DNA of 64,000 bases from an uncultured bacterium (GTDB lineage: Bacteria > Patescibacteriota > Minisyncoccia > Phycocordibacterales > CAIZLB01), in the NCBI GenBank assembly GCA_903848795.1, contig CAINHC010000021.1, positions 11,309-75,308 on the forward strand, read 5' to 3'. Each line of letters opens with the position of its first letter. The stretch's first letter is position 1. Shown here piece after piece: positions 2,408 to 21,742 of this stretch. The position numbers and the translations under genes are program-made. The notes under the pieces are model-generated. The model worked only from the letters and a program-made list of their open reading frames with translations, did not search any database and was not told the origin of the DNA.

Positions 2408-4315
2408 CTATAATCTTAATTTGTTTAATAAATCTTCTAATTTAATTGTAGCAACTCCCGTCACACTATCACCTGCTCCATAATATATATAGGCTCGGTC
2501 TTCTCTCATAACCAAACTACATGGAAATACCACCTTAGGAACTAATCCATTCACCTCATAAGGTGCCTCTGGTTCAAAAATCGGAGCAGCAGTCTTTGCT
2601 TTTACAACTGTTGGGTTTTCTAGGTCAAGTAAAAGCGCACCGACTCTATATGTCTTATTTTTGGAAATTCCGTGGTACAAAATCAGCCAGCCTTCAGCGG
2701 TTTTGAGTGGTGGACCAGCGATACCAATTTTAACACCATCCCACATACCAGGTTCGGGGTTTAGTATATCTATACACTTTGTAATTTTTTCTTTTGTAAA
2801 ATCAAGAGTTTCGACAAAGTCAGCACAAATACTATTATCAACTCTATGAATTATCATGTACTTTCCGTGTATCTTTTCTGGGAAAATAACTGCGTCTTTG
2901 ATGGGAATATTTGGCGGGGTAATTACATTTGGCATTGACCATTGTTCCCATTTTCTAGCAAGAAAATCATCGACGGAAATTGAACTCACTGCAACTCTTG
3001 GAGTTATGCCGTTATAGGCAGTGTAAGTCATGTATATAATATCTCCAATTCTAATTAAACGTGGGTCTTCACATCCATAATTATTATTTGCTCCATCATC
3101 TCTTTTTTCAAAATCAGCACGAGGAGTATATATTGGCATTTTTGGACGCTCATCGATTTTTAGTCCATCCTTACTATACGCATACCCCAGGACAGAAACA
3201 TTTCCAGCAGAGGCCGCACGATAGATAATGTGAGTCTCGCCATTCAAGTTAATCACCGCAGGATTTATTGTACCACCAGCTTCCCATGCCACCCCATCAC
3301 GAGGAGAAAGTATTGGGTTGCCTGCAAATCTCTTGAATTTATGCTCAAGCATTGAGTCAGTCATTAGACTCAATAAGTTTTCTAAATTAACAAAAGCAAC
3401 AGCGCAATGTGTATCAGCTCCCCCGTAATATATTTCCAATCGACCGCCCTTAACTAGAGTTCCTGTTGGAAATATAATATTGGAAACATGACCAGTCTTT
3501 TCGTAATACGTACTTGGAACCATAAATGGACCATTTGTCCTTCCAATAATTCTTCTTGGATTTTCCAAATCAAGTAATACTGCTTCAACTCCAAATATTG
3601 GATTCTGAGTTGAATAGTCTTGAATGTGGGAATATATAACAAGCCAGCCCTTTTCTGTCTTAAGTGGCGGGGTTCCCATCTCAACCTGATCACTATCTTT
3701 TCTTCGTAGATTTATTTTATGCTGGTCTCCTTCCTTCAGCCAATCATGCCATTTTTGGTCATTCCACAGATCTTCAGGCTTATCAAATTCTACATAACAA
3801 ATATCAGCTGGCCATTTGTCAGTGTTAATCGTGACGAGTCCTGCGATTTTGCCATTTATTTTCTCTGAGAACAAAGCCATTGCCTTTGCATTAAAAGGTG
3901 TAACTAAATGTTTCTCTTTAACAGTATTCAAATCATCACTTAAAGCGACTGCCACTTTTATATTATCAGCTGAGAAAGGATAGCCACCGAGCGCGGTGTA
4001 GAATGTATAATATACGCCATCAATTTTTGTTATTCTTGGATCTTCACACCCATATTTGTCATAGTCTTCACTTGGGCCAAAAAATTGTCTACGATTTTCA
4101 AAATTAATTCCATCTATCGATTCGGCAATACCAATAACAGAAGTACTTATGTGAGGCTCCATCAAATGATCTGGTTCAGACATCGCTCTATAAACAATGT
4201 GAGTCTTTTCACCTGAGACAATCGGACAACCATTAAAAGAAGAGTGGGCTTCCCATGGATGTTCCTGAATGGGTGAAAGTATTGGATTATGTTCTAGTCT
4301 ATTTAGTGTAAACAT
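2408..4315 (-). CDS. Tandem double-domain GH130 (beta-mannoside phosphorylase/hydrolase family) protein
   Basis: Two ~300-aa halves, each with the GH130 GCEDPR motif followed by a YxTYTA block (GCEDPRITKIDGVYYTFYTA and GCEDPRLIRIGDIIYMTYTAYNG). Confidence 0.7.
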   Translation of the reverse strand: MFTLNRLEHNPILSPIQEHPWEAHSSFNGCPIVSGEKTHIVYRAMSEPDHLMEPHISTSVIGIAESIDGINFENRRQFFGPSEDYDKYGCEDPRITKIDGVYYTFYTALGGYPFSADNIKVAVALSDDLNTVKEKHLVTPFNAKAMALFSEKINGKIAGLVTINTDKWPADICYVEFDKPEDLWNDQKWHDWLKEGDQHKINLRRKDSDQVEMGTPPLKTEKGWLVIYSHIQDYSTQNPIFGVEAVLLDLENPRRIIGRTNGPFMVPSTYYEKTGHVSNIIFPTGTLVKGGRLEIYYGGADTHCAVAFVNLENLLSLMTDSMLEHKFKRFAGNPILSPRDGVAWEAGGTINPAVINLNGETHIIYRAASAGNVSVLGYAYSKDGLKIDERPKMPIYTPRADFEKRDDGANNNYGCEDPRLIRIGDIIYMTYTAYNGITPRVAVSSISVDDFLARKWEQWSMPNVITPPNIPIKDAVIFPEKIHGKYMIIHRVDNSICADFVETLDFTKEKITKCIDILNPEPGMWDGVKIGIAGPPLKTAEGWLILYHGISKNKTYRVGALLLDLENPTVVKAKTAAPIFEPEAPYEVNGLVPKVVFPCSLVMREDRAYIYYGAGDSVTGVATIKLEDLLNKLRL

Positions 4316-7448: not shown

Positions 7449-8036
7449 TTAATTATACAACACCATCTCCGTTATTTCCAACATCTCTCCATCTGACCCC
7501 TTAAATCTTTCATCAAAGGTCTTTTTACCAGTTTCAACAAAACCTTGTTTTTTATAAAAGCCCACCCCTCGGGAGTTAAGGGAAAATACATCTAAATACG
7601 TATCTTTGTTTTTATCCAACAAACCGTGTGCTTTATCATACAATTCTTTAGCAAGCCCTTGACCCTTGAATTCTGGCATGACATACAAAGCCTCTATTGT
7701 ATTTTTATCTTCATGTTTTTCAGCAAAACAACATCCGACAACTTTTTCTTCATCTTTCCCATCGTTGTCATTAGTCATTTTTGCGACCATAAGAATATTA
7801 TCATCCGTAAAATTAGCAATGCCTTTTTCCAACCCCTCGGCTGCCTTTTGTGCTTTTTCTGGAGGAAAATGATTATTTATCTCCTCCTCCGACCAACCGC
7901 AAAGTTTGTACATCCCTTTGGATGATTCAATTGTTAATGATTGGATACCATAGGCGTCGGAAGGGATAGCTTTTGATATTTTGACGTTGTTCATTTTATA
8001 TCTATTTATTAAGCGCATTCCTTGTTGCTGGACCAA
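7449..8036 (-). CDS. GNAT-family N-acetyltransferase
   Basis: Acetyl-CoA-binding region VMPEFKGQGLAKELYDKA...RGVGFYKKQGFVETG. The start overlaps the upstream gene, so the true start is probably an internal Met. Confidence 0.6.
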   Translation of the reverse strand: MVQQQGMRLINRYKMNNVKISKAIPSDAYGIQSLTIESSKGMYKLCGWSEEEINNHFPPEKAQKAAEGLEKGIANFTDDNILMVAKMTNDNDGKDEEKVVGCCFAEKHEDKNTIEALYVMPEFKGQGLAKELYDKAHGLLDKNKDTYLDVFSLNSRGVGFYKKQGFVETGKKTFDERFKGSDGEMLEITEMVLYN

Positions 8037-9255
8037 GCGCTCCTGTTTGTGTAAGCTTCTTCGCCTTTTGGAATTTCTTTACTGCGGTTTCAGTAAGTGG
8101 ACCAAACTTTCCATTAATAGGGCCGGTATAAAAATCTAGCTTCTTAAGTGTAGTTTGCAACTCAGTAACTTCCTTGCCAGTTGAACCACTCTTAATTGAA
8201 GTTGAGAATTTATATTTGGTTGCAGATACGGTTGTATTGGATGATTCCACTGATGTATTAACTACGGGATTTGCGACAACAGTGTTAGGAGTAGAAACTA
8301 CAGCAGGTGTGGGTACAGGAGTTGAAACCTGAGAAATATTATTTTGATCTAAAATTAAACTCATCTGTGCCGTTCTTCCATTAAAGTCATTCAACGCCAA
8401 AACTACTGGAATTGTTGATCCTTCATTCCCTGTCACAATATAACTTGAAGTATAAGGACTACTACCAGAAACACCAATTCTCTTTCCAGCAAAAGAAGCC
8501 CACGCAGTATTCACTTGATTTGGCTGATTTGCGCTGAAGCTAAGGGAGATGGTCGAACCAGGACTTAAAAAATTTCCGTTGACATTACTTGATGAAAGAG
8601 TAAATGACGAGAATGATATAGCGGGACTGTTGTTTGTATTTGTTTGATTAACTGCACCTGTATTAACAACTACAATTACTAAGTTTGAACACTGACCATC
8701 ACTTTCACAAACATTAAGAGTTGCACCACCAAAAGCATTAGCGTAGATGTTAACATTATTTCCATTTATTGTTGCTGCTACCACACTACTATTTGAATTA
8801 CTTGCTATACCATAGCCCCCATTGCCATTAAGCCCAATTGATAGACTTTGACCAACATTAAGAGTTATATTGTTTTGACTGAAAATCGGATAACCATTTG
8901 TGGTTGTGTTCGTTGAACATGTACTATTACCACTTGCTGACCATGGAATCATCAGGGATTGCTGATTGTTTACAATGACGTACGCTGTTTGATTACAACC
9001 CGCGAGATTGTGCGTATTTGAACCAAAGGTCGTAGAAAAATTACCATTCTGATCTGTCGAACCAACGTAAGCAGACGATCCTCCAAAATGAAGATCGATG
9101 AGCGAGTTGGGATCTCCATAAACTGTTATCTTGCTCATTGTATTATCCACTGGGCTCAGGGACAATGTTGGAATAACGGATGCATTTGCCTTGGAAGCAA
9201 GCAAAAAAAGTATTCCAAAAAGTACCAATAATAAATTATTTTTAATAGTTTTCAT
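8002..9255 (-). CDS. Secreted Asn/Ser/Thr-rich surface protein with C-terminal peptidoglycan-binding domain
   Basis: Signal peptide MKTIKNNLLLVLFGILFLLASKANA; low-complexity N/S/T-rich body; C-terminal PG_binding_1 motif (TELQTTLKKLDFYTGPINGKFGPLTETAVKKFQ...TGALG). Confidence 0.55.
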   Translation of the reverse strand: MKTIKNNLLLVLFGILFLLASKANASVIPTLSLSPVDNTMSKITVYGDPNSLIDLHFGGSSAYVGSTDQNGNFSTTFGSNTHNLAGCNQTAYVIVNNQQSLMIPWSASGNSTCSTNTTTNGYPIFSQNNITLNVGQSLSIGLNGNGGYGIASNSNSSVVAATINGNNVNIYANAFGGATLNVCESDGQCSNLVIVVVNTGAVNQTNTNNSPAISFSSFTLSSSNVNGNFLSPGSTISLSFSANQPNQVNTAWASFAGKRIGVSGSSPYTSSYIVTGNEGSTIPVVLALNDFNGRTAQMSLILDQNNISQVSTPVPTPAVVSTPNTVVANPVVNTSVESSNTTVSATKYKFSTSIKSGSTGKEVTELQTTLKKLDFYTGPINGKFGPLTETAVKKFQKAKKLTQTGALGPATRNALNK

Positions 9256-9348
9256 TTTGTAGTTGTTGTAGTTGTAATATATTGAATAATGAGTTTATTA
9301 TACCATTATTTAGTGATTATTCTCAATTACTTACTCTACCAATAATAT

Positions 9349-9873
9349 ATGTCTTTCTTCTTAAACAATGCTAGAATAGCATTCATGATATTAACCACGC
9401 ACGCATCTGTAGGAGCAACACTCGCTGTCCTTATACCCAGCAACCCGATTTTGGGTTTTGCAATAGGCTTTGGAAGTCACTTCATTTTAGACTCAATTCC
9501 CCATTGGGATTACAAATTACGAAGTAGTAAAAGAAATAAACAAAAGCCACTTACCAACGACATTATTATCGGAAAAGATTTTTATATTGATTTAATAAAA
9601 ATAGGACTCGATGCACTACTGGGACTTGCGCTTCCTTTATTTTTCCTTGGATTTTTACAACATCAATTAATTCTAATGATTTTATGTGGAGCGATCGGTG
9701 GTATGACTCCAGACTTTTTGCAGTTCGTATATTTTAAATGGAGACACGAACCACTTATTAGTCTACAGAAATTTCATATCTCTATGCATGCAAAAACTGG
9801 TCTGAATGATAAACCACTTCTAGGTGTTTTATGTCAGACAGCGATTATTGTGATTGCATTTGCATTAGTTTAA
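9349..9873 (+). CDS. Integral membrane protein, possibly YdjM/DUF457-like metal-dependent hydrolase
   Basis: 3-4 predicted TM helices; SHFILDSIPHWDY resembles the DUF457 metal-binding motif. Weak call. Confidence 0.3.
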   Translation: MSFFLNNARIAFMILTTHASVGATLAVLIPSNPILGFAIGFGSHFILDSIPHWDYKLRSSKRNKQKPLTNDIIIGKDFYIDLIKIGLDALLGLALPLFFLGFLQHQLILMILCGAIGGMTPDFLQFVYFKWRHEPLISLQKFHISMHAKTGLNDKPLLGVLCQTAIIVIAFALV

Positions 9874-9968
9874 GATTTTAAGTTATTGATTGTGAATTAG
9901 GACACAGATTAAGCTACAATTATGCCGTATTTGCTTGTGGAGACGGGCCAGGGTGTTATACTTCAGAT

Positions 9969-10628
9969 ATGTGTTTTTCAGCTTCTGCCAGTTTTATTGC
10001 AAGCGGCGCCCTTGCCGCTCTTGGCGGGGTTTTTTTTGTTTCTGCAAAGAAGAAAGATAAAGTACTCGCGGTAATTCCGATAATGTTCAGTATTCAACAA
10101 TTTTGTGAAGGAATACAGTGGCTTTATCTAAACTCAGGATCTTCTTCATATATTGCCGGATATTTCTTTTTATTTTTTGCTTTTATCTTGTGGCCTTTAT
10201 ATGTGCCAATCATGGTTTTTCTTTTAGACAAAAGTGAAAGAAAGATATTGGGATGGTTTATACTTGCAGGAGTTGCGGTGGCGATTTATTTTTCTACGAT
10301 ATTTTTATTAGGCCCCTTAGATATACAAAGGGTTAATTCATGCGTAAGTTATAACTTTAGTTTTCCCTTCCAAAACTTTGTTGTTTTAGCATACCTTCTA
10401 GCTATTGTCGGATCCCTATGTATTTCAAGTCTTAATATCTTTCGCTATTTTGGAATAGTCGTTGGATTCTTAGGGCTTGTCTCATGGTTTTTCTTTGCGC
10501 TCACATTCACGTCGGTTTGGTGTTTTTTCGCAGCCATTGTCAGCCTAATGTTTTTCTTTTACGTAAAATACAAACATAAGGTTAATATACTATTGGAGAA
10601 AGTAGATAAGAAAGTTTTGCAAAAATAG
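9969..10628 (+). CDS. Polytopic membrane protein, unknown function
   Basis: Roughly six hydrophobic helices; no recognisable motif. Confidence 0.3.
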   Translation: MCFSASASFIASGALAALGGVFFVSAKKKDKVLAVIPIMFSIQQFCEGIQWLYLNSGSSSYIAGYFFLFFAFILWPLYVPIMVFLLDKSERKILGWFILAGVAVAIYFSTIFLLGPLDIQRVNSCVSYNFSFPFQNFVVLAYLLAIVGSLCISSLNIFRYFGIVVGFLGLVSWFFFALTFTSVWCFFAAIVSLMFFFYVKYKHKVNILLEKVDKKVLQK

Positions 10629-10672
10629 ATTTTGATAATTATTACTATTTCCCCACCTTAATTATTCATCAT

Positions 10673-11572
10673 TCAACCTCTTCTAACAAGCAAAACCTTA
10701 ACAAAATCAAGCCACGTCTTACCCATACTACCTCTAAGCGCCCTAACTAAAGGCATCATCTTATTTGTCAGCGCAGCCTTTGCAAATAAATCAAAAACTT
10801 CTTCTTCTGTTTTGTAAGCTTCAGGTTTTTTTGACGCGACATATTTAATTAGTGAGCCCAATGCCTTAATTTCCTCCGCATGTGAGCTGGGCTCAAAATA
10901 AGGATTTCCAGATTCATCTTGTTTTAATTGATGAAGGCTATTATTACCATTATCTGAATCAACCGAAGGAGGGTCCTCCAAAAGCCACGGTTCTTTTGAA
11001 AGAACGTCTTGGACAAATCTAATTGACAACTCATCCATAACTGCTTCATCTAAGTTCCCAGAAACTTCTTCCAATAAATCACCCCTCTCTCCCCTAGAAA
11101 CTTGTAAGCCAGCTCTTTTAAAACCAACTCTTGAACTCGAATCAACTTCTTCCTCTTTGTAATATTGATATGATGAGAAATGTAACACCTCATGGGCAAC
11201 TATCTGTGCCCTACTCAATCTTGGCTCCAAATCGAGAGCGTCTGGCGAATATATTATGCGTTGATGTTTAGTCTGAAAACCAGCATCACCCTTAAGTTTT
11301 GGTGCGCCATCGGCACTAATGTCTACTGCATGAAAATGGTCCAAAGTAAGTGGTGGCATTTTTCCTCCATACCTCTCTAAAAATGCAGGCATTTCCCTAA
11401 GTACAGATGCAATTATTGTCTCATCTTCTTCAGTTTTTTTTATTTCCCACGGTTCTACTTTTTGATTATCAAAAACGTATTCCAAATAAGCTTTAAAATC
11501 ATCGACCTTGTCGCTTTCGCCAGCGAGCCTATCTACACTACTAGTCTCTTTTAAATTAAATTCCTTATTCAT
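10673..11572 (-). CDS. Acidic hypothetical protein with HExxH motif (putative zinc metallopeptidase-like)
   Basis: IVAHEVLHFSSYQ (HExxH); very acidic; no other recognisable family. Confidence 0.35.
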   Translation of the reverse strand: MNKEFNLKETSSVDRLAGESDKVDDFKAYLEYVFDNQKVEPWEIKKTEEDETIIASVLREMPAFLERYGGKMPPLTLDHFHAVDISADGAPKLKGDAGFQTKHQRIIYSPDALDLEPRLSRAQIVAHEVLHFSSYQYYKEEEVDSSSRVGFKRAGLQVSRGERGDLLEEVSGNLDEAVMDELSIRFVQDVLSKEPWLLEDPPSVDSDNGNNSLHQLKQDESGNPYFEPSSHAEEIKALGSLIKYVASKKPEAYKTEEEVFDLFAKAALTNKMMPLVRALRGSMGKTWLDFVKVLLVRRG

Positions 11573-11590
11573 ATATTCATTATTAAAAAA

Positions 11591-12100
11591 TTATAAAATT
11601 TTCAACTTCATCTCCTCTTTAAACTCGAGTGCGCGTTCAAGCATCCTATCAGCCTGTTTCCCCCAGTGAGCATCACACATTGGAATAAACTCCGATGGGT
11701 CTATAAAATTAATTTCAGTCACCTCCCCTCCTGGGTCTTCTACAAAGTCACCCTCGGGCTCTACCAAGCAAACTACTCGAGCGTGAAAAACTGATTCCCC
11801 AGTTGGTCTAATGGTCTCATGCATTCCCACAAGTCTCATATTTATGATTTTCATATTAGTCTCTTCTGCCACCTCTCTCCTTGCTCCATCTCTAACGCTT
11901 TCTCCGTTTTCTAATCCACCACCCGGAATTCCCCAATGTCCTTCTGATTCACGAACAACTAATAATTTATCATTCATAAAACAATAAGCCCTTACGCTTT
12001 CCATTTTCTTTCCTTCAAAAGCGCTATCATCATCGACATCATTATAAATGATTTCAAATTTTAGTCCGGCTGAGGTTATTATAGTTTTTTTGATTTCCAT
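11591..12100 (-). CDS. NUDIX hydrolase
   Basis: Nudix box GIPGGGLENGESVRDGARREVAEETNM (GX5EX7REUXEEXGU). Confidence 0.75.
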   Translation of the reverse strand: MEIKKTIITSAGLKFEIIYNDVDDDSAFEGKKMESVRAYCFMNDKLLVVRESEGHWGIPGGGLENGESVRDGARREVAEETNMKIINMRLVGMHETIRPTGESVFHARVVCLVEPEGDFVEDPGGEVTEINFIDPSEFIPMCDAHWGKQADRMLERALEFKEEMKLKIL

Positions 12101-12122
12101 ATTATTTTTATTAATTAAAAAA

Positions 12123-13157
12123 TTATTCAGGTTGGCCCTCTGTAATCATCTTCTTTATTTCCTTATCAAAATCAGAATCAATTTTCTGATACTTATTAAA
12201 TTCTTTGTATTCAGAAATGGCTTTTTCGTCTGCATCTAGCTTGGAAATCTTCCCCTTACCATCCAAAACTTCATATTTATTGAATGTCAAAAATTGGTCA
12301 ACACTCTCTGCAAACTCTTTCATTGTAAAAGCATTACTTCTTTCTATTAGTCCCTCAATGTAATCAAAAAAGCCTGTAACTGTTCTTTCCAGTTTTTTAA
12401 TCTCACTTTCTTTTAAATAATTCTTTGCGATGGTAACATCAGATTGTAATACCCTACCTGTAGGAGATTTTTTCCAAGTTGTAAGACCCATATATGGCAA
12501 GGTTGCATCTGCCTTGTCATAAATTATTTCAGGTGCTGTTTTCCCAGTGATTGCAAAGTGAAATTTATTTTGAACCATAGCATAAAATTCATGACTCACA
12601 TCAGAATCTCTATCGTAATCGATACTACACTCGGCAAATATGTCTGTAATTTGTTGGTAAATTCGACGCTCGCTTGTCCTAATGGAGCGAACTCGTTCCA
12701 ACAATTCTCTAAAATAATCAACTCCGAATGTCTTCTCGCCCTGTTTCAAACGATCATCATCAAGCACGAACCCTTTTTTAATAAATTCACGAAGTACTTG
12801 GGTCGCCCAAATACGAAAATATGTGGCCTTTTTGGAGTTTATCCTATAACCTACGGCAATAATGACATCGAGGTTGTAATGTACAATTTCTCTGGAAACC
12901 TCTCTATTAGCCTCATTTTGAACTATTAGGAATTTCCTAATAGTTGCCAATTCCGATAATTCTTGAGATGAATAAATGTTCTTAAGGTGTTCATGTATTG
13001 TAGGGATAGAAACATCAAAAAGCTCTGCGATAAGCTTTTGAGTTAACCAAATTGTTTCCCCTTCTATTCTGACCTCAATTTTAGGCATCCCCGCCTCATT
13101 GCCAAACATGAGAAATTGAGCAATTTTATTATTTTTAGTGACATGATTTTCTTTCAT
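12123..13157 (-). CDS. RhuM-family protein (virulence protein RhuM-like), paralogue 1
   Basis: Family signature YNLDVIIAVGYRINSKKATYFRIWATQVLREFI...TSERRIYQQITDIF; HTH-like N-terminus. Confidence 0.7.
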   Translation of the reverse strand: MKENHVTKNNKIAQFLMFGNEAGMPKIEVRIEGETIWLTQKLIAELFDVSIPTIHEHLKNIYSSQELSELATIRKFLIVQNEANREVSREIVHYNLDVIIAVGYRINSKKATYFRIWATQVLREFIKKGFVLDDDRLKQGEKTFGVDYFRELLERVRSIRTSERRIYQQITDIFAECSIDYDRDSDVSHEFYAMVQNKFHFAITGKTAPEIIYDKADATLPYMGLTTWKKSPTGRVLQSDVTIAKNYLKESEIKKLERTVTGFFDYIEGLIERSNAFTMKEFAESVDQFLTFNKYEVLDGKGKISKLDADEKAISEYKEFNKYQKIDSDFDKEIKKMITEGQPE

Positions 13158-13281
13158 AGTGCAGTCAGTTTATCACAAAAGAGACGATGTCTCTAGCTTA
13201 AGAATTTTTTAGGAATTTTTCTCATGTAACCAACTATTTATCACCAAGATCCTTTTTCTCACCCCACTGCCAACGAGGCTT

Positions 13282-13488
13282 TTATCCTTTTTTGTAGCAT
13301 ATATATATTAATAATCCAGTGAGTAAAAACACTCCCGCTAGACCAAGGATCCAATTATATTTTATAGTTAAGGTTAAGGGGATAAAGATGATAAGCCAGA
13401 TAAGCAAAACAAGCCACCCCTCCCAAGTGGCAGGAGTCCATCCATATCCATAAGTCTTATTAACAAACCATATCTTATTTTTTTTCAT
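13282..13488 (-). CDS. Small two-helix membrane protein
   Basis: 68-aa ORF, almost entirely hydrophobic helices; tightly spaced downstream of the MliC-like gene. Confidence 0.3.
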   Translation of the reverse strand: MKKNKIWFVNKTYGYGWTPATWEGWLVLLIWLIIFIPLTLTIKYNWILGLAGVFLLTGLLIYICYKKG

Positions 13489-13506
13489 CTGAGTTATTTT
13501 GTTAGG

Positions 13507-13878
13507 CTATTTTGTAACGCAATTCTTGTATGTCATATTATCCTGACTACCTTCTGTTACAAAAGCGGTATTTCCCTTATTCCAAAAAACTATCGATTCA
13601 TCATCGTTAGCGTAACGAGCGCCAGAGGCAGAAATTGTCTGAGGCAAGAATAATTCTGGACCACCACTTAGAGTTACGTAAGTTGCGCTTTTATAAAAGA
13701 TGGCGTGTATATTTTTGTTACCCTCGCACTGAAATACGACATCACTAACCTTATTCCCCAATACTTCTTGTACGCCAAGCTTTTTACCTAGAAAAATACC
13801 GAGTCCAAAAACTCCAACGAATAATATAATTGCCACGGTTTGTGAAAGCCGGGTGACTTTGTTCCATTTAATTTTCAT
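13507..13878 (-). CDS. MliC-like (membrane-bound lysozyme inhibitor of C-type lysozyme family) membrane-anchored protein
   Basis: N-terminal signal/anchor; two Cys (FQCEG ... YKNCV) bracketing SASGARYANDDESIVFWNKGNTAFV, matching the MliC SGSGAxY...FWxKG core. Confidence 0.5.
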   Translation of the reverse strand: MKIKWNKVTRLSQTVAIILFVGVFGLGIFLGKKLGVQEVLGNKVSDVVFQCEGNKNIHAIFYKSATYVTLSGGPELFLPQTISASGARYANDDESIVFWNKGNTAFVTEGSQDNMTYKNCVTK

Positions 13879-14044
13879 AATAGAAGTATATCATGCCTAT
13901 ATAAATTCGTACCCCAGCCAGCAGGTGAGCCCGTGTCGATTCCACTAAATCATCTACTGAAACTAGCACTTCATTTTACTTCTCATTCTTGAGCTACCGT
14001 GGATTCCTCGGTAGCTCGATTTAAGCATCATTTTTATAAATAAA

Positions 14045-15784
14045 CTACAGAACATCATTTAAAGATCTAAAACCAAAAGTTTGATATTTATTTTTTAAAA
14101 TCGATGGACCTGGCCATTTACTATCATGCTTTTTTCTTTCTTCTGTGTACCAATCTATAATATTTGTTGGTTTATAACCTTCGGGTATCTTATTCCACGC
14201 GTCCCTAACTTCTTCAGCCCAATCTTCGTATTGCAAGAAAGTCATTTTATACTTTTCCTTTCCGATCAGATCATAAAAGGGTTTTCGTCCAAAATTTGAA
14301 TATTTTTCTTTTAAGCTACCAACCTTAGGCCATGTTTTACTGTGCTCTCTTTTTCTTTCTTGTTCATACCAACTCCACAAACTTCTTGGTCTTTCATTTT
14401 CTGGTAACTGACTCCATGCGCTTACAACTTCCTTTAACCAATCTTCATATGGAAGGTAATCCTTATCTCTATAATTATCTTTACCCACAACATCATTCAC
14501 AGATTTAAAACCATGAATTGAATATCGTTTTTTTAATCTTGAATAACTAGGCCAAGTCTTATTGTGATTAACACGTTTTTCCTCGCCGTACCAATCTTCC
14601 ATATCTCTTTGTTTCTCATGCTCCGGTACCTTACCCCGCGCATCCTTAACTTCTCTGGACCAATCCTCATATGGAAGATAATCCTTATCTAAATGATTTT
14701 CCCTACCAACAGCGGTCGTCAACGTTGTAAACCCATAGGGAGAATATTTTATTTTTAGTATTTTTGAACTTGGCCAGGCATTATGACTCTTTCTTTTTTT
14801 GTTATACCATTTTTCAATATCACCTTTTTTTTCTTTATCTGACGTTTCGTCCCATGCGATTTTAACTTCCTCAGACCAATCTTCATATGGTAAATGCTTT
14901 ACACGTTCTCTTTTAAAAAATTCTGATTGCAAGAACCCCTCAGATAAAGCCTCATCACTTATAGATCCTTCTTGTTCCGGTAGTTCCTCTTCAAGATATA
15001 TCTTAATCTTGTTTCTCCAATTTAATGTTTGTATTATTCGTACCCCAATACCTGGATACATAGCAATGAGTGAATTTTTATCTTGCTTTCCATCAATATC
15101 CAAATCATCGAGTTGGATATGAAGCTCTTGCAATTTTTGTGTATCAAAAACATAACTCGCATTACCTTCTTCATCACATATATATACGGCTCGATTAAGT
15201 TCAGGCACAATAACTCTTACATACGGAGTTTTTCTAATCATCTCATCTTTTACCTCACCCTCTAGTACTAGCATTTGTTCTATATCTCTTATATCAATAT
15301 CAAAGTCTGTTTCAAGAATATACATAAGAGTCAGAAGTCTTGGTATAAACTTCTTCTTTTCAAAAGGAGTATCACCAGGAATTATTCCTTGATTCTCCAA
15401 TTGATCAGGTGGAGTGATGATTGTTTCTGTTTTTTCCTTTGACCCCTGAATGCTTATCTTGACGGCGTCAATCTTTGCTTTAACTTCCTGAATACGATCT
15501 AATATTTCTGAAATGTTTGGTAATTCAAGTTTTTTACATACATCGTCTTCTTGTTCCTGAGTATTTAAAGATAAATTACCTTCAAGATTAGGGTTGGTCT
15601 TATATTCATGAAGCAAGTCATTAATAAGTTCGATTGTATCGCTTACAGCTTCGTCTGCAAAAGATTCTATGTTTTCGACAGTAAGGGGTTTGTATAAAAT
15701 ACCATTTAGTCTTTTAATCGATTCCTCTTTTAAGACTTCAAGAGATTTATATAACTCTACCTGTTTAAATGGATTTTCTAACAT
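14045..15784 (-). CDS. Hypothetical protein with four C-terminal ~65-aa Trp-rich tandem repeats
   Basis: Repeat consensus YEDW.EEV..AW.........WY.EERK.H..TWP....LK.KY..FGF.S.NDV.G, four copies over aa ~300-579; N-terminal 300 aa unassigned. Confidence 0.5.
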   Translation of the reverse strand: MLENPFKQVELYKSLEVLKEESIKRLNGILYKPLTVENIESFADEAVSDTIELINDLLHEYKTNPNLEGNLSLNTQEQEDDVCKKLELPNISEILDRIQEVKAKIDAVKISIQGSKEKTETIITPPDQLENQGIIPGDTPFEKKKFIPRLLTLMYILETDFDIDIRDIEQMLVLEGEVKDEMIRKTPYVRVIVPELNRAVYICDEEGNASYVFDTQKLQELHIQLDDLDIDGKQDKNSLIAMYPGIGVRIIQTLNWRNKIKIYLEEELPEQEGSISDEALSEGFLQSEFFKRERVKHLPYEDWSEEVKIAWDETSDKEKKGDIEKWYNKKRKSHNAWPSSKILKIKYSPYGFTTLTTAVGRENHLDKDYLPYEDWSREVKDARGKVPEHEKQRDMEDWYGEEKRVNHNKTWPSYSRLKKRYSIHGFKSVNDVVGKDNYRDKDYLPYEDWLKEVVSAWSQLPENERPRSLWSWYEQERKREHSKTWPKVGSLKEKYSNFGRKPFYDLIGKEKYKMTFLQYEDWAEEVRDAWNKIPEGYKPTNIIDWYTEERKKHDSKWPGPSILKNKYQTFGFRSLNDVL

Positions 15785-16106
15785 ATTTACATTTTATCCT
15801 AGATATCGGTTATTATAAAGGCTTCTCTATTTTTTCCAACGCCTGTCTCGCTTAAGACAAATCAGCTTTATCTCCGTTTGACAACCTATCGCCGTATTCT
15901 TCTGGCGCCATTATTATCGCAATCTTTTTTCTTAATACCTCTTCATGCCCCCATTCAGATCGTTTTATCATAAGAACATTGCGATTATTTATAGCACAGG
16001 ACTAACGATTTAAAATATTAAGACTGCAAGTTGCTTCAACCCAGTAGGCAACAATCCACCCAAAATACCTCGAAGAATATAGTTTTAAAAAAACAATTAC
16101 AGACAT

Positions 16107-16856
16107 CTACAAAACCCTAAATACATAACCTTCTTTCTTCAATTTAGTTACTATTTCTTCTATTGCAACGTATGTGGCCGGCGCGTTCGGACCACCCAAA
16201 TGCATGATTATTACCGATTTATCATGAACTCCACTCAACACCGCTTTGACAATACCTTTCGAATTCTTATTAAAAGAATCTCCCGACGTTAGCCCAGCGT
16301 CAGAAACAGTTAATCCAATTTTTTGGGCCAATAGATCATCTTGTTGATTATGGCAAAGACCTGGATGGCGGAAATATTTTGGAACAACGCCCGTGAGTGC
16401 TGTAAGAATTCTTTGGGTCTTTTGCATTTCCTCAATTTTATCTTCATCTGTATTGATAATTTTTAACTTATAGCAGGGCGACTCAAAACCAGGGTGATCG
16501 TATGAGTGATTAGCAATTTCAATATCTGGATATTTAGCAATTTCCCTTATCAAATCTGGATATACCTCAGCGAACATTCCAGTAACAAAAATCGTGGAGG
16601 GAATCTTTTCACTTTCTAAATAATTAACAAGATCTTTACTATAATAATCAGAAACTTTTTTCTCATCCAACTTCTTTTTCATAAATGGTGTCATGTCGGC
16701 ATCGAATGTGAGATACACCACTTTTGATTTTGATACCTGAATTTCAGCCTTACTTTCAGCATCGCTTTCTACTTTTTTTGTATGTAAAATATAGAAGACG
16801 ATGCAAATCAAAATCGCCAGAATAACCGCAAAGATGATTTTTCTATTTCTAATCAT
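16107..16856 (-). CDS. Polysaccharide deacetylase (CE4, NodB homology domain), membrane-anchored
   Basis: N-terminal TM; TFDADMTP and NHSYDHP motifs. Confidence 0.65.
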   Translation of the reverse strand: MIRNRKIIFAVILAILICIVFYILHTKKVESDAESKAEIQVSKSKVVYLTFDADMTPFMKKKLDEKKVSDYYSKDLVNYLESEKIPSTIFVTGMFAEVYPDLIREIAKYPDIEIANHSYDHPGFESPCYKLKIINTDEDKIEEMQKTQRILTALTGVVPKYFRHPGLCHNQQDDLLAQKIGLTVSDAGLTSGDSFNKNSKGIVKAVLSGVHDKSVIIMHLGGPNAPATYVAIEEIVTKLKKEGYVFRVL

Positions 16857-16862
16857 ATTAAG

Positions 16863-17885
16863 CTATTTATCAGATACATTCTTAACTTTCTTCTCAATCC
16901 TCTTTTGAACACTCCTGATCGTCTCCAAATAGGCTTCTTCTACTGGTGAAAGAGTTTTTACTTGATACTTCTTGTATTCAGTCTTGGCTTTTTCTAATGC
17001 TTGTTCATGACTTACGTTTCCAGAATCTTTAAGTAAACCCTTCCCATAATTTTCAGTAAATTTATCAAGTTCACTGACCCAGTCCGCCATATACATCTTT
17101 GTATGTTCTTGTGCTTTGATTTCAGCAAGATCAAAGAAGGCTGACACTAAACGATTAAGTCTAAAAAGTTCTTCTTCCGTGAGATAGTTTTTTGCAATCC
17201 CAACTTCAGAAAATACAGGTTGTGCACCAGAAAATGTTGTTAATCCCATAAAGTCCTTTTCTGCATCAGCTCGTGAATGAATTGTTTCAGCAGCAGTGTG
17301 TTTATTGGTAGCATAATGCAATTTATTTTGCACCGTTTTAAAGAACTTAATTGACTCCTGACTGTGGGGATCGTAATCCATACTAGTTGAATACAAATCA
17401 AGCACTTGACGATAGAGCACCTTTTCGCTACTTCTGATATCACGAATACGTTCCAAAAGTTCTTTCCAATAGTTTCCGCCTCCAGTACCTTTGAGGCGTT
17501 CATCGTCCATAGTAAATCCCTTGATAATGTATTCACGAAGCCTGGCTGTTGCCCACTGTCTGAAACGCGTACCCTGTATAGAGCTTACACGATATCCAAC
17601 AGATATGATTACATCGAGGTTATAGTAATTTGTAGGCTTCGTAGAAAAATCGGAAATTCCAATTTTTCTTATAGTACCGTATTCTATGAGCTCTTTTTCC
17701 GAGTAAATATTAAGAATATGTTCATTTATCGTTGAACGACTTTTATTGAATAATTCTGCCATTTGATCAATAGTAAGCCACACCGTCTCATTTTCAAAAC
17801 GGACCTCAAACTTTGGCTGACCATTGTCGCCTTCGTAAATAACTATTTCATTGTTAGATTTGTTAAATTCCATATCTTTTATCAT
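16863..17885 (-). CDS. RhuM-family protein, paralogue 2
   Basis: YNLDVIISVGYRVSSIQGTRFRQWATARLREYI...SSEKVLYRQVLDLY; ~50% identity to paralogues 1 and 3. Confidence 0.7.
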   Translation of the reverse strand: MIKDMEFNKSNNEIVIYEGDNGQPKFEVRFENETVWLTIDQMAELFNKSRSTINEHILNIYSEKELIEYGTIRKIGISDFSTKPTNYYNLDVIISVGYRVSSIQGTRFRQWATARLREYIIKGFTMDDERLKGTGGGNYWKELLERIRDIRSSEKVLYRQVLDLYSTSMDYDPHSQESIKFFKTVQNKLHYATNKHTAAETIHSRADAEKDFMGLTTFSGAQPVFSEVGIAKNYLTEEELFRLNRLVSAFFDLAEIKAQEHTKMYMADWVSELDKFTENYGKGLLKDSGNVSHEQALEKAKTEYKKYQVKTLSPVEEAYLETIRSVQKRIEKKVKNVSDK

Positions 17886-18022
17886 TCATTATCAGCAATC
17901 ATTTTATTAATAAACATCATATCAAATATATATAAAATGAGCTATTATAACTCTATACCACCCTACATAAAATAACCTTGAAAATAGGGCTTAAAAAAAT
18001 CGGCTGTGGTTACCACACGAAG

Positions 18023-19318
18023 TCAGAACCGTTTTGATGCTAGGTAAGAAAAAATAGCTGCAAGCAGACAAACAGCCCCGCCAAGTATAATAGGCATTCG
18101 TGCACCCATAGCGTCCGCAAGCCATCCAGAAAGTGGTCCGCCAACAGCACCCGATCCAGTTAAAAAGATTCCTTGAAGCGCCATCAATCGCCCGTGCATT
18201 TCTTGTTTTGATTCGACTTGAATCATTGTAGTTGTTGCTGTCATGTATAAAATACTAGACGCTCCCACAAGAAAAATAATTGGTATAGCTACTAAGACAC
18301 TAGGAGAAAGTGCGAGCATCAGCATGCTAATACCAAGCATTGTAGCACCAAAGATAATATGATTCATTTTAACTAATCCCCTACGAGCTACAACAAGGGC
18401 ACTTATGACAGCTCCGACACTAAAAACTGAATAAAGAAGTGTAAAGTTACCGATCGTACCATGAAGGCCCCTGGTTACAAACAATGGAAAAGTAGTGGTA
18501 AAATTGTATGCAATCGTTCCAATAAAAGCGAGCATGCCAAAGTTTATCGCCAATAATGGCATAGAAAAAATATATTTTATACCTTCACCTACTCTACCTT
18601 TTGTTTTAGTAATCTCTGACTTTCGATACAGTTCCGAAGGTCGCATCATCATAAGACAAATTAAAACTGCAATATAGGAAATAGCGTCAAAGGTAAAACA
18701 CCAACCAAAGCCCACCGTAATAATTAGAAGCCCCGCAATCGCTGGGCCTAATATTCGTGACAAATTAACATTTGTACTATAAAGCACCACTGCATTTGGA
18801 ATATCATGTTTAGGGACCATTTCGCTTAAGAAAGATAGGCGAAGTGGATTATCCAATGAAAGCACTATTCCTCCAACAAATGCTAATGCATATAATCCAA
18901 AGAGTGGCGGATGTGGCATAAAAGCCAAAACAGCAAGACCTACAGATTGTACCATCTCCAAACTCTGTGTCCAAATAAGCAGACGTCGCTTATCAAATTT
19001 ATCAGCAATAGATCCTGCCCACAATGAAAGAAATAGTATCGGGCCATACTGTAGAGCAGAAACTATTCCAACAGAAAGACCGCTTTCAGTAATTTTCAAA
19101 ACTAGCAAAGTAAGGGCGATTTTTGTTAGCCAATTACCAGTATTTGAAATAGTTTGTCCTATTGTGAATAACCTATAGTTGCGATTCCTGAGCGATATAA
19201 AAGTCTTCAAAAATGTTTCTTTGTATTTAGGTGGTGCAAATAGTTTTTGGTTCATATAAAAAAATGTCAAAAAAACAAGCCTCGAGATCTCCAAGTTATT
19301 CTGGATTATTCCCTTCAA
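18023..19318 (-). CDS. MFS-family transporter
   Basis: 12 predicted TM helices in MFS-typical 6+6 layout, with a characteristic loop (DKFDKRRLL). Confidence 0.6.
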   Translation of the reverse strand: MKGIIQNNLEISRLVFLTFFYMNQKLFAPPKYKETFLKTFISLRNRNYRLFTIGQTISNTGNWLTKIALTLLVLKITESGLSVGIVSALQYGPILFLSLWAGSIADKFDKRRLLIWTQSLEMVQSVGLAVLAFMPHPPLFGLYALAFVGGIVLSLDNPLRLSFLSEMVPKHDIPNAVVLYSTNVNLSRILGPAIAGLLIITVGFGWCFTFDAISYIAVLICLMMMRPSELYRKSEITKTKGRVGEGIKYIFSMPLLAINFGMLAFIGTIAYNFTTTFPLFVTRGLHGTIGNFTLLYSVFSVGAVISALVVARRGLVKMNHIIFGATMLGISMLMLALSPSVLVAIPIIFLVGASSILYMTATTTMIQVESKQEMHGRLMALQGIFLTGSGAVGGPLSGWLADAMGARMPIILGGAVCLLAAIFSYLASKRF

Positions 19319-20315
19319 TTATTTTCTTTACTTCACGGTCAAAATCAGAAATGTAATTTTTGTCCTGTTCTATGCGGTATTTTTCATATTCACCAAGCGC
19401 CAAGGATTCTGCAACCTCATGACTAATCTTACCAGCATTAGTCAATATTTCATACTCACTGAAATTAAGAAAGGCGTTGAGTTTTTCTATCCAATCCGAC
19501 ATTGTCATTGCTTTACCTCGAGATGCTTGCATTTCGGCGTAGTCTAAATACATATTACCAATACGATTTAGATGATCTAACTCATTTTTATTCAAATAAT
19601 TTTTTGCTATAGTCACGTCGCTTGGCATTATTTTACCCTGCGGATATTTACGCCACGAAGTCAAACCTAGTTTTTCCTTTTTACGGCTCACTCTTTCCGC
19701 AACAATTTCTGCCGCCGTTCTACCGGTAATAGCAAAGTGTAGTTTATTTTGCACTGTTGCAAAAAATTCCTTACTTTCAAACGACTTTGGAGAATAGTCA
19801 ATCGCTGTTGCGTATATGTCTGTAATTTTTTGATATATTCTACGTTCACTCGTACGAATATCTTGTATTTCTTCATAAAGCTCATCAAAATACCGTGCGC
19901 TAAAACGAGAGCCATATTTCATACGGTCACTATCCAATGCATAACCTTTTTGGATATAACTTTTCAAAACACCAGTTGCCCATCTTCTAAATTCTGAACC
20001 TCTTTCAGAATTAACCCTATAGCCAACAGCGATGACAAGCTCGAGGCTATAACAGACGACCTTACGAACAACCTCCCTTTTCCCCTCTTTTTGAACTACC
20101 GAGAATTCCTCGGTAGTTGCATTTTTATCAAGCTCGTTCTCATTATGTATGTTCTTAATATGAAGAGACACATTGTCTGTTGAACAATCAAATAATTCTG
20201 ATATTTTTCGTAAGGTTAGCCACATATTATTCACGTCATACAAGACCTCAATATTTACCCTACCATCTTGAGATTGATAAAACGCTATTTCATTGTCTTT
20301 TATCTTTTTTATCAT
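19296..20315 (-). CDS. RhuM-family protein, paralogue 3
   Basis: YSLELVIAVGYRVNSERGSEFRRWATGVLKSYI...TSERRIYQKITDIY. Confidence 0.7.
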   Translation of the reverse strand: MIKKIKDNEIAFYQSQDGRVNIEVLYDVNNMWLTLRKISELFDCSTDNVSLHIKNIHNENELDKNATTEEFSVVQKEGKREVVRKVVCYSLELVIAVGYRVNSERGSEFRRWATGVLKSYIQKGYALDSDRMKYGSRFSARYFDELYEEIQDIRTSERRIYQKITDIYATAIDYSPKSFESKEFFATVQNKLHFAITGRTAAEIVAERVSRKKEKLGLTSWRKYPQGKIMPSDVTIAKNYLNKNELDHLNRIGNMYLDYAEMQASRGKAMTMSDWIEKLNAFLNFSEYEILTNAGKISHEVAESLALGEYEKYRIEQDKNYISDFDREVKKIIEGNNPE

Positions 20316-20425
20316 ATTTATCCTAGTATATCATACTGATAAAAATTGTAATTTTACCCATTATTTATCTTAAAAATATAATGAGGTTGAACCTGTATCT
20401 TTCGTGTTTGAGTTGGCTGGCCCTA

Positions 20426-20463
20426 CCACACAAAATTAGAACCTTTTTGATGCTAGGTAAGAG
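20426..20463 (-). repeat. Remnant duplicate of the MFS gene 3' end (last 8 codons, stop, 3' flank)
   Basis: Minus-strand reading of 20426-20463 encodes ...SYLASKRF* followed by the ccacac flank, matching 18013-18048 at the true MFS 3' end. Confidence 0.6.
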
Positions 20464-20508
20464 TAATTTCTTTCACTTTAGTCCTGAATTTACCAGATGA
20501 TTAAATAT

Positions 20509-20967
20509 TTAAAGTCTAATTATAATATAAAACCACAACATAACCATAACAATAGACAAAATCATTGATATTATAACTTGAATTTTCTGCCACTTAGTTA
20601 GGTTTACGATAGTAAGAGTTTTTTTTGATTTACTTAATAAAATCACACAGGAAATAGCTACAATAATTATTATTGGTACAAAAATTATTAAAGCAATTGC
20701 AGAGCCAACATATACCGATGTAACTGTTAGTATCGTATAAAGGATATTTAAAATTGAAAGGACACAAACAAATATAATCTCTATATCTATTATCTTTCTT
20801 AAATTTTTATTTGCATTCTCATCTACTACAACAGGAACCTTTTGATTTGAATCTCCTTTATATATAAGTTTTTTAATTCCGAGATATAAAATGAATAAAA
20901 TTGGAAGTAAAATTATTAAAAACACAAGGCTGAAGTCTGGGCTTAAATCAGATAAAAAACTAATCAT
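20509..20967 (-). CDS. Small polytopic membrane protein, unknown function
   Basis: Four hydrophobic helices; no motif. Confidence 0.3.
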   Translation of the reverse strand: MISFLSDLSPDFSLVFLIILLPILFILYLGIKKLIYKGDSNQKVPVVVDENANKNLRKIIDIEIIFVCVLSILNILYTILTVTSVYVGSAIALIIFVPIIIIVAISCVILLSKSKKTLTIVNLTKWQKIQVIISMILSIVMVMLWFYIIIRL

Positions 20968-21109
20968 GCGTTAATAATAACATCATCAATAATCAAAGCA
21001 AGCAACATTCTATTGAATAAACTGACCTTATCACAAACCACCATGCAAGAAGTTCTGACGTTCAAGACGCTTATTATAAAAAGGCTTGAAACAAAGGCGG
21101 AAATACCGG

Positions 21110-21181
21110 CTGGGAGACTAGGAATCGAACCTAGATTAAAAGCTTCAAAGGCTTCTGTCCTACCGTTAGACGATCTCCCAA
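21110..21181 (-). tRNA. tRNA-Gln (anticodon UUG)
   Basis: The reverse complement gives a 7-bp acceptor stem GGGAGAT/GTCTCCC, T-loop GGTTCGATTCC, and anticodon loop CTTTGAA (U-UUG-A). No encoded CCA. Confidence 0.8.
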
Positions 21182-21508: not shown

Positions 21509-21742
21509 TTAATGTACTTGTAGCGGAGCTACTAACAGTCCAAGATTATTAAAGACTTTTATAACCACCACAGGTCTTTCAAATCTATGGTTTTTACCAT
21601 TTATCTCAACACCAATATTTTGACCCAAATTTACCCACCAAATGTCTCTTACTTGGGGATATGAAAAACTCTCAGATTTATGAATACTGATTTTGAGATT
21701 ATTCCATTCGTTAAAAATTTCCGATATTTTATCATCACCCAT
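21509..21742 (-). pseudogene. PemK/MazF-family toxin, C-terminally truncated fragment with no cognate antitoxin
   Basis: RDIWWVNLGQNIGVEINGKNHRFERPVVVI...VAPLQ matches the MazF N-terminal core (GdI..v.f.p..G.E..G.RPalV...vaP.T). 77 aa against ~110 expected; no antitoxin ORF upstream. Confidence 0.45.

Follow-up and report, generated by a model that had tools for sequence, protein, structure and literature searches.

How do three RhuM genes come to lie in one genomic island, by multiplication in place or by separate arrival? The question is raised by a stretch of 64,000 nucleotides from an uncultured bacterium of the Patescibacteriota (contig CAINHC010000021.1; this whole stretch is hereafter called the window), in which three genes of the RhuM family, named here RhuM1, RhuM2 and RhuM3, lie on the minus strand together with a short repeat, R, that resembles the 3' end of a neighbouring transporter gene of the major facilitator superfamily (MFS). 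Few genes that lack an explanation are as common in defence islands as RhuM, and one test of phage protection by a member of the family has been reported. The reading that we favour, with a probability of about 0.65, is that the window carries an island of three independently acquired RhuM subfamilies, in which R is a relic at the junctions of the blocks, and which has an anti-phage role.

The three genes were readily identified. RhuM1 (12123..13157, 344 aa), RhuM2 (16863..17885, 340 aa) and RhuM3 (19296..20315, 339 aa), all on the minus strand, had been placed by the original prediction exactly where the table of open reading frames (ORFs) has them, and the profile that it proposed as a check, PF13310 (Virulence_RhuM), is matched by all three with E-values from 4e-102 to 3e-104, over 231–250 of the 252 model positions and with scores of 348, 341 and 343 bits against a gathering cut-off of 33.7 bits. 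All three also match the PADLOC model PDC-S05 over the full length (E 4.5e-148, 1.5e-146 and 4.6e-138). The amino acid identity is 46% for RhuM1/RhuM3, 44% for RhuM1/RhuM2 and 39% for RhuM2/RhuM3, so that the divergence predicted at about 50% is real, at a measured identity somewhat lower than that.

The database relatives of each gene bear directly on its origin. RhuM3 has at least 120 relatives at 75–95% identity, spread over several lineages of Patescibacteria and with one in Margulisiibacteriota, and RhuM2 has at least 120 at 73–91%, mostly from other Patescibacteria lineages; the members of the RhuM2 group are just 37–42% identical to RhuM3. For RhuM1, a search of 1.84 billion cluster representatives returned 26,088 members of the family at E ≤ 0.001, among which full-length representatives at 54–57% identity are closer to it than either paralogue in the window. 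The pattern of a local array, in which the copies are mutually closest and have diverged uniformly across the unit, is not what was found. On these comparisons of sequence, the window holds one member each of three anciently separated subfamilies, of which those of RhuM2 and RhuM3 are each shown to be tightly conserved, and the three genes are to be regarded as independent acquisitions and not as in-place duplicates, because all have closer relatives elsewhere than any paralogue in the window. The suggestion of a paralogue expansion at this site does not survive this result, nor the observation that a related genome with the same flanks, described below as L034, holds a gene of RhuM2 type only.

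A comparison by domains showed that the three proteins resemble one another most in their central core (50–59%), and that the tail of RhuM2, of roughly 60 residues, is distinct, being 24–26% identical to the others. The idea that a variable C-terminal domain acts as a specificity determinant is weakly supported by this tail; those of RhuM1 and RhuM3 share 43% identity.

A second body of evidence comes from the repeat. A polysaccharide deacetylase gene (16107–16856) and the MFS gene lie between the RhuM genes, as had been predicted. The latter (18023..19255, minus strand) encodes an EntS-like transporter of the MFS_3 type of 410 aa; its ORF spans 18023–19318, and the real ATG is at 19255, in agreement with the 410-aa call in public assemblies. 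The protein exceeds the cut-offs of PF05977 (194.5 bits) and PF07690 (119.4 bits), and matches the EntS equivalog of NCBIfam below the cut-off. A second copy of its gene's tail had been noticed near 20426–20463, and alignment reproduces the similarity and extends it to 48 nt: R' (18002..18049, minus strand) is made of the last nine codons of the MFS gene, the stop codon and a terminator-like stem (18005–18017) with a T-run, and R (20415..20462, minus strand), non-coding, corresponds to nine codons, the stop and 21 nt. The two are identical at 40 of 48 positions (83%) with a spacing of 2413, and R still encodes S-Y-L-A-S-K-R-F-stop, with the changes CGG>AGG and TGA>TAA. In MFS relatives from many phyla the last helix ends with FGY[YFL]A[ST][RK][RH][YF], followed by 3–30 further residues, and the C-terminus of the window protein, FSYLASKRF-stop, aligns with this motif; moreover, in relatives at 78–79% the nucleotide homology reaches the start of R'. 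Since the peptide fits the C-terminal motif of the family and the homology of the MFS gene runs to R', it is R' that is the native MFS sequence, and R is the relic of such a tail. Upstream of R, neither tblastn nor a local alignment to the MFS region detected MFS homology; the spacer found there directly 5' of R, X (20463..20508, about 46 nt, minus strand), contains in-frame stops, does not align with the MFS gene and is not derived from it.

That the repeat might be a chance similarity or an artefact of assembly was also considered, given that the region is AT-rich (GC 0.29–0.40) and some public contigs break nearby. This is hardly conceivable: a 28-nt core pattern, allowing up to three mismatches, has two sites only in the 64 kb and gave no match in 100 shuffles, six copies of R are found by nhmmer with E-values between 1e-14 and 1e-18, and the same arrangement recurs in independent assemblies from several samples. 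Indeed, several freshwater-lake metagenome assemblies (GCA_903994855.1 and others) contain contigs 100% identical to the window with the gene order unchanged. Candidate strain variants at the RhuM3/MFS junction were rejected, as the contig ends that deviate proved to be artefacts of assembly in the deposited data: in L001 (GCA_903994855.1, CAJEYZ010000002.1) the end at 12246–12297 is Illumina adapter (AGATCGGAAGAGCACACGTCTGAACTCCAGTCAC...), and in L005 it is a chimeric inverted copy, which makes a palindrome.

If R is a copy of an MFS tail, the simplest thought would be an in-place tandem duplication of an MFS-RhuM unit, followed by the deletion of most of the upstream MFS gene and by a long divergence of the RhuM copies. 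The layout (MFS tail)-RhuM3-(MFS)-RhuM2 invites it, as do the similar distances from tail to start codon, 99 nt at RhuM3 and 116 nt at RhuM2, and the genuine MFS origin of R. The degrees of divergence, however, are discordant and largely refute it: R and R' are 83% identical, whereas behind them RhuM2 and RhuM3 share 59% of their DNA sequence, about 60% in the 5' leaders and 39% in protein, because of which the MFS tail and RhuM did not duplicate as a unit, and the R/R' pair is much younger than the split between RhuM2 and RhuM3. The many much closer relatives of both genes elsewhere speak against it too, as do the presence of the R-RhuM3 block in an unrelated context in L014 and of RhuM2 alone in the syntenic L034 (both loci are treated below), and the lack of a RhuM gene beside the closest MFS relatives. 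We therefore hold such a duplication to be very improbable; of the two histories that had been offered, segmental duplication or cassette exchange, the latter is the better one. An ancestral pairing of MFS and RhuM was likewise rejected, as the RhuM2 relatives at 81% also lack an MFS neighbour. The transporter itself has four relatives at 71–79%, and the next named ones, at 60–67%, come from Gemmatimonadaceae, Thermoleophilia, Armatimonadota and Anaerolineae, some of them on contigs of Mb size; because the nearest named relatives lie in other phyla, its sequence suggests an acquisition from outside Patescibacteria. Within the island, the GC content is highest in the MFS region (0.405). On a Pseudonocardia plasmid (NZ_CP012182.1; L116, 2977–5621) an MFS transporter gene lies 250 nt downstream of a RhuM gene, the same order as RhuM3-MFS in the window, which may be a coincidence.

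The favoured history, that of separately acquired genes with R at the joints, gains from the comparison of the window with database loci, labelled L014, L024, L025, L034 and so on. RhuM3, its 99-nt leader and R form a discrete module (19296..20462, minus strand) that is shared, at 89.6% nucleotide identity, with L014 2821–3982, and its edges are the stop codon of RhuM3 and the outer end of R (20462). L014 carries a relative of RhuM3 at 95% in a context unrelated to the window (S1, a PemK toxin-antitoxin pair, RhuM, a 90-aa ORF, a gene with a metallo-beta-lactamase fold, GyrA), and there the RhuM block is flanked by two copies of R in the order R-RhuM-X-R: the second lies just downstream of RhuM and is preceded by the same spacer X that precedes R in the window. 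The X|R junction thus recurs in L014 (3983–4030), and also in L024 (about 3251–3281), where X-R occurs without RhuM, downstream of tRNA-Gln and of genes in common with L034. L025, a sister of L014, has both flanks 93–94% identical, a single R and no RhuM, precisely the state that recombination between two R copies would leave behind or start from. L014 and L025 thus make a concrete occupied/empty pair for a RhuM module of about 1.2 kb, which can serve studies of gene flow among uncultured lineages. A second indel separates these sister loci directly to the left of R (L014 about 1592–2716, L025 1483–1799); a 112-aa ORF and the PemK toxin-antitoxin pair of L014 are absent from L025, so that both sides of R are variable.

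RhuM2 has a block of its own. Leader and ORF together (16885..18009, minus strand) are the only segment of the island in common with L034, where the homologous region (7867–8989) is 87% identical in nucleotides, above the 68–80% of the flanking core genes; this homology begins at 18009, within R'. An apparent degenerate R in L034 fell short of significance in an nhmmer profile search and was discarded, and the same profile found no R near RhuM1 and no further copy. A non-coding module, 'Y', with a CCTCC-GCAA-GGAGG stem-loop, is 90% identical between L034 (9298–9419), where it lies downstream of the RhuM2-type gene, and L025 (1187–1308), where it lies to the right of R; no Rfam family reached the threshold for it. 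No similarity was found between mem152 and the 152-aa neighbour of a RhuM2 relative.

The six copies of R have sharp and identical edges, with three left contexts (X, one that we call 'W', and the body of the MFS gene) and four right contexts. From these edges, R marks, in this small set of lake genomes, the recombination junctions of a movable RhuM module and not an in-place duplication; the view of the original prediction, that the repeat is a relic of the MFS 3' end and marks recombination, is borne out both by the homology and by the edges of the blocks. In the simplest history, recombination at R-type sequences would have added a segment with RhuM3 and the MFS gene upstream of an older, resident RhuM2: the starting site would have been X-R-leader2-RhuM2, into which a circle R-leader3-RhuM3-MFS recombined. 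R and R' now bracket RhuM3 and the MFS body (2.4 kb), and recombination between them could loop the segment out again. We infer that the process was homologous, of the RecA type, between the 48-nt repeats or through a circular intermediate, rather than site-specific, given the coding origin of the site and the lack of any recombinase.

A dedicated system nevertheless deserves to be weighed. R, or X-R, could be a functional site of the att or attC kind, at which a recombinase encoded elsewhere mobilises single-gene cassettes. Sharp edges that are identical in six copies with differing neighbours on either side are what such a site would show, and so are the clean polymorphism between R-cassette-R and a single R, the conservation of 80–96% in non-coding settings between genomes whose flanks cannot be aligned, and a variable central triplet between conserved arms. 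Neither the island nor L014, L024 or L025, however, encodes an integrase or recombinase, neither R nor X-R has a stable fold (z about 0) or an Rfam match, the MFS coding origin accounts for the sequence, and 48 nt suffice for recombination of the RecA type. The distribution is also narrow: scans of a genome collection found R in L024 and L025 only, and those of metagenomes found the L014 contig and two chance hits, so that R is confined to four genomes, is absent from viral contigs and was rejected as a widespread element. A site-specific function of R is thus unlikely. A tRNA-like origin was dismissed too, the resemblance of R to the 3' end of tRNA-Gln amounting to a mere 7 nt.

The island in which these events would have occurred is delimited by its synteny with L034, a contig that carries a relative of RhuM2 at 91% and is syntenic with the window on both sides. 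It extends from 9312 to 21107, between the gene for tRNA-Gln(ttg) (21108..21180, minus strand; ARAGORN, Rfam 64.5 bits), whose 3' end faces it, and a PG_binding_1 gene. One flank (enolase, Dus, DnaX, PemK, tRNA-Gln) and the other (PG_binding_1) have 68–80% nucleotide identity in the two genomes, and the variable interior measures 11.8 kb in the window and 7.3 kb in L034, where the genes differ and include two periplasmic binding proteins, two methyltransferases and an ABC ATPase. Flanks that are conserved between related genomes and content that differs are the mark of a hotspot, and the earlier suggestion of one is upheld. No integrase is found among the called genes of the island, and no tRNA-derived direct repeat in the window between 5000 and 21100, so that the signs of an integrase-mediated tRNA island, the enzyme and, at the opposite border, a repeat of the tRNA 3' end, are missing; the GC content of the island is not distinctive in this AT-rich region. 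As for defence genes, a PADLOC scan of the window matched the three PDC-S05 genes and none of the other scanned genes, and a PemK fragment is also present; L034 has an N6_N4 methyltransferase. The PemK/MazF-like ORF of the window (21509..21742, minus strand), at the edge of the island, is truncated to 77 aa and shares 50% identity with PemK of L014; its orthologue in L034 (3095–3523) has 142 aa and a PF02452 match. No antitoxin partner of the truncated ORF is evident. Elsewhere in the island, a protein of 579 aa (14045–15784) has no Pfam or PADLOC match, and its gene has four repeats within it, each about 219 nt long; in one public contig from this species (L003/L009) a 156-nt in-frame length variant of it gives 631 aa.

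What the RhuM genes do can be approached through their relatives. RhuM has been proposed as a toxin domain that occurs in restriction-modification (R-M) operons and is frequently found fused to DOC (Anantharaman et al. 2013, PMC3710099), and RhuM genes are enriched near invertible hsdS genes; in a cold-seep study, phages were reported to plate less efficiently in the presence of one PDC-S05/RhuM gene, T7 and T5 by about 1000-fold and T4 by about 10-fold. Relatives of RhuM2 and RhuM3 occur inside type I R-M operons (hsdM-hsdS-hsdR) with PrrC-like ATPase and Fic neighbours, beside a type III R-M system, and beside Drt3, HicB and SymE. With moderate confidence, and by analogy with these cases, RhuM1–3 may be viewed as non-redundant single-gene anti-phage effectors with a DNA-binding head acting as a sensor or regulator. 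In each protein a DNA-binding domain at the N-terminus would be joined to a helical effector domain, and three divergent copies would widen the range of phages covered. The locus shows, at any rate, three divergent RhuM subfamilies stacked in one hotspot by a reduced-genome lineage of the episymbiont type.

Several observations weigh against this account of acquired defence genes joined at R. The defence role is drawn from one heterologous test, in E. coli B, of one other member of the family, and the remaining genes of the island (deacetylase, MliC, NUDIX, MFS) are not defence genes. All 18–20 public contigs of the species of the window share one arrangement at 100% identity, and among them no excision or empty-site variant was seen at the window locus itself. 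With R in four genomes only, insertion and deletion, and recombination of the RecA type and by a dedicated enzyme, are all compatible with the data; and X-R is 87% identical between the window and L024, where the flanks cannot be aligned, which is unexpectedly high for a passive relic.

An observation to one side of this argument concerns a hairpin inside the RhuM genes. RhuM3 contains a perfect 10-bp stem at codons 66–74 (20094..20118, fold z = -5.9), RhuM2 one of 12–13 bp with one G-T pair (17643..17669) and RhuM1 a perfect one of 12 bp (12921..12945), all on the minus strand. In a set made of these three genes and those of L014, L017, L021, L034 and L035–L118, a perfect or near-perfect hairpin of 9–16 bp occurs at this one coding position (codons about 66–75) in 64 of 68 genes, and the other four (L055, L058, L057, L065) have a palindrome in its place, interrupted by two or three mismatches. 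Of 64 distinct genes, 44 contain no perfect hairpin longer than the one at this position, whose stem in them has 10 bp or more, and three more have a perfect stem of 8–9 bp here; in codon-shuffled RhuM genes the longest perfect hairpin averages 6.5 bp. When 60 genes were aligned codon by codon on the basis of their proteins, Watson-Crick pairs made up 575 of the 720 cells of the hairpin (80%), against 14–31% when the partner column is moved by 1–3 positions, and 35 pair types over the 12 positions indicate extensive compensatory changes. The encoded peptides co-vary (TTEEFSVV, TIRKFLIV, TCRKFRQV, VVKEILTT), that is, the covariation of the hairpin forces the peptide to change with it; contacts between residues fail to explain this, because in the model one and the same beta-strand contains all these residues. 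The hairpin is present in all four plasmid-borne RhuM genes examined from other phyla, two of them at 65–66% GC and one annotated RhuM/Fic/DOC. It has no Rfam family, and no description of it surfaced in literature searches that included RhuM; a function as antisense terminator was rejected, as a T-run follows in only some genes. An intergenic hairpin between the 579-aa gene and the MliC gene (13991–14017, GAGCTACCGAGGAATCCACGGTAGCTC, fold z -4.85) is 81% identical over 37 nt to the hairpin region of RhuM3, with one compensatory pair change, and may represent either a very small remnant of RhuM or a separate copy of the element. One might go further and picture RhuM genes as self-contained mobile defence cassettes with their own cis signals, the hairpin being a functional RNA or single-stranded DNA element, either a switch for self-regulation or a handle for mobilisation, and the R flanks lineage-specific recombination sites between Patescibacteria genomes; we consider this quite unlikely. 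The hairpin is a side observation more intriguing than the island itself, and offers a testable handle on the control of RhuM.

Set beside known systems, the three genes resemble PDC-S05 genes in the full-length match to PF13310 and PDC-S05, the size of about 340 aa, the N-terminal DNA-binding module and the helical C-terminal part. PDC-S05 genes are typically found in type I R-M operons or defence islands, whereas the three copies of the window lie within 8 kb with none in an R-M operon, next to MFS, deacetylase, MliC and NUDIX genes, in a small-genome organism of the Patescibacteria type. The island recalls tRNA-adjacent islands and defence hotspots, with core flanks kept, contents that differ, the 3' end of a tRNA gene and a degraded toxin gene at the edge, but differs from them in having no integrase, no tRNA-derived direct repeat and no distinct GC content. 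The RhuM module of about 1.2 kb, a single-ORF unit between direct copies of a short site, occupied and empty in sister genomes, is reminiscent of integron cassettes, which are defined by a foldable attC and intI; R, however, comes without IntI, is not an imperfect palindrome, folds, like X-R, no better than shuffled sequence, originates from a coding 3' end and is found in four genomes. Deletion and amplification at direct repeats by RecA offer a further parallel, since 48-nt repeats bracket the variable segment and the single R is what R x R recombination would leave; horizontal transfer is needed besides to explain where the second R came from and how X-R spread among the genomes. The locus adds one more case to a known kind of island, and its RhuM module bounded by R is modestly novel.

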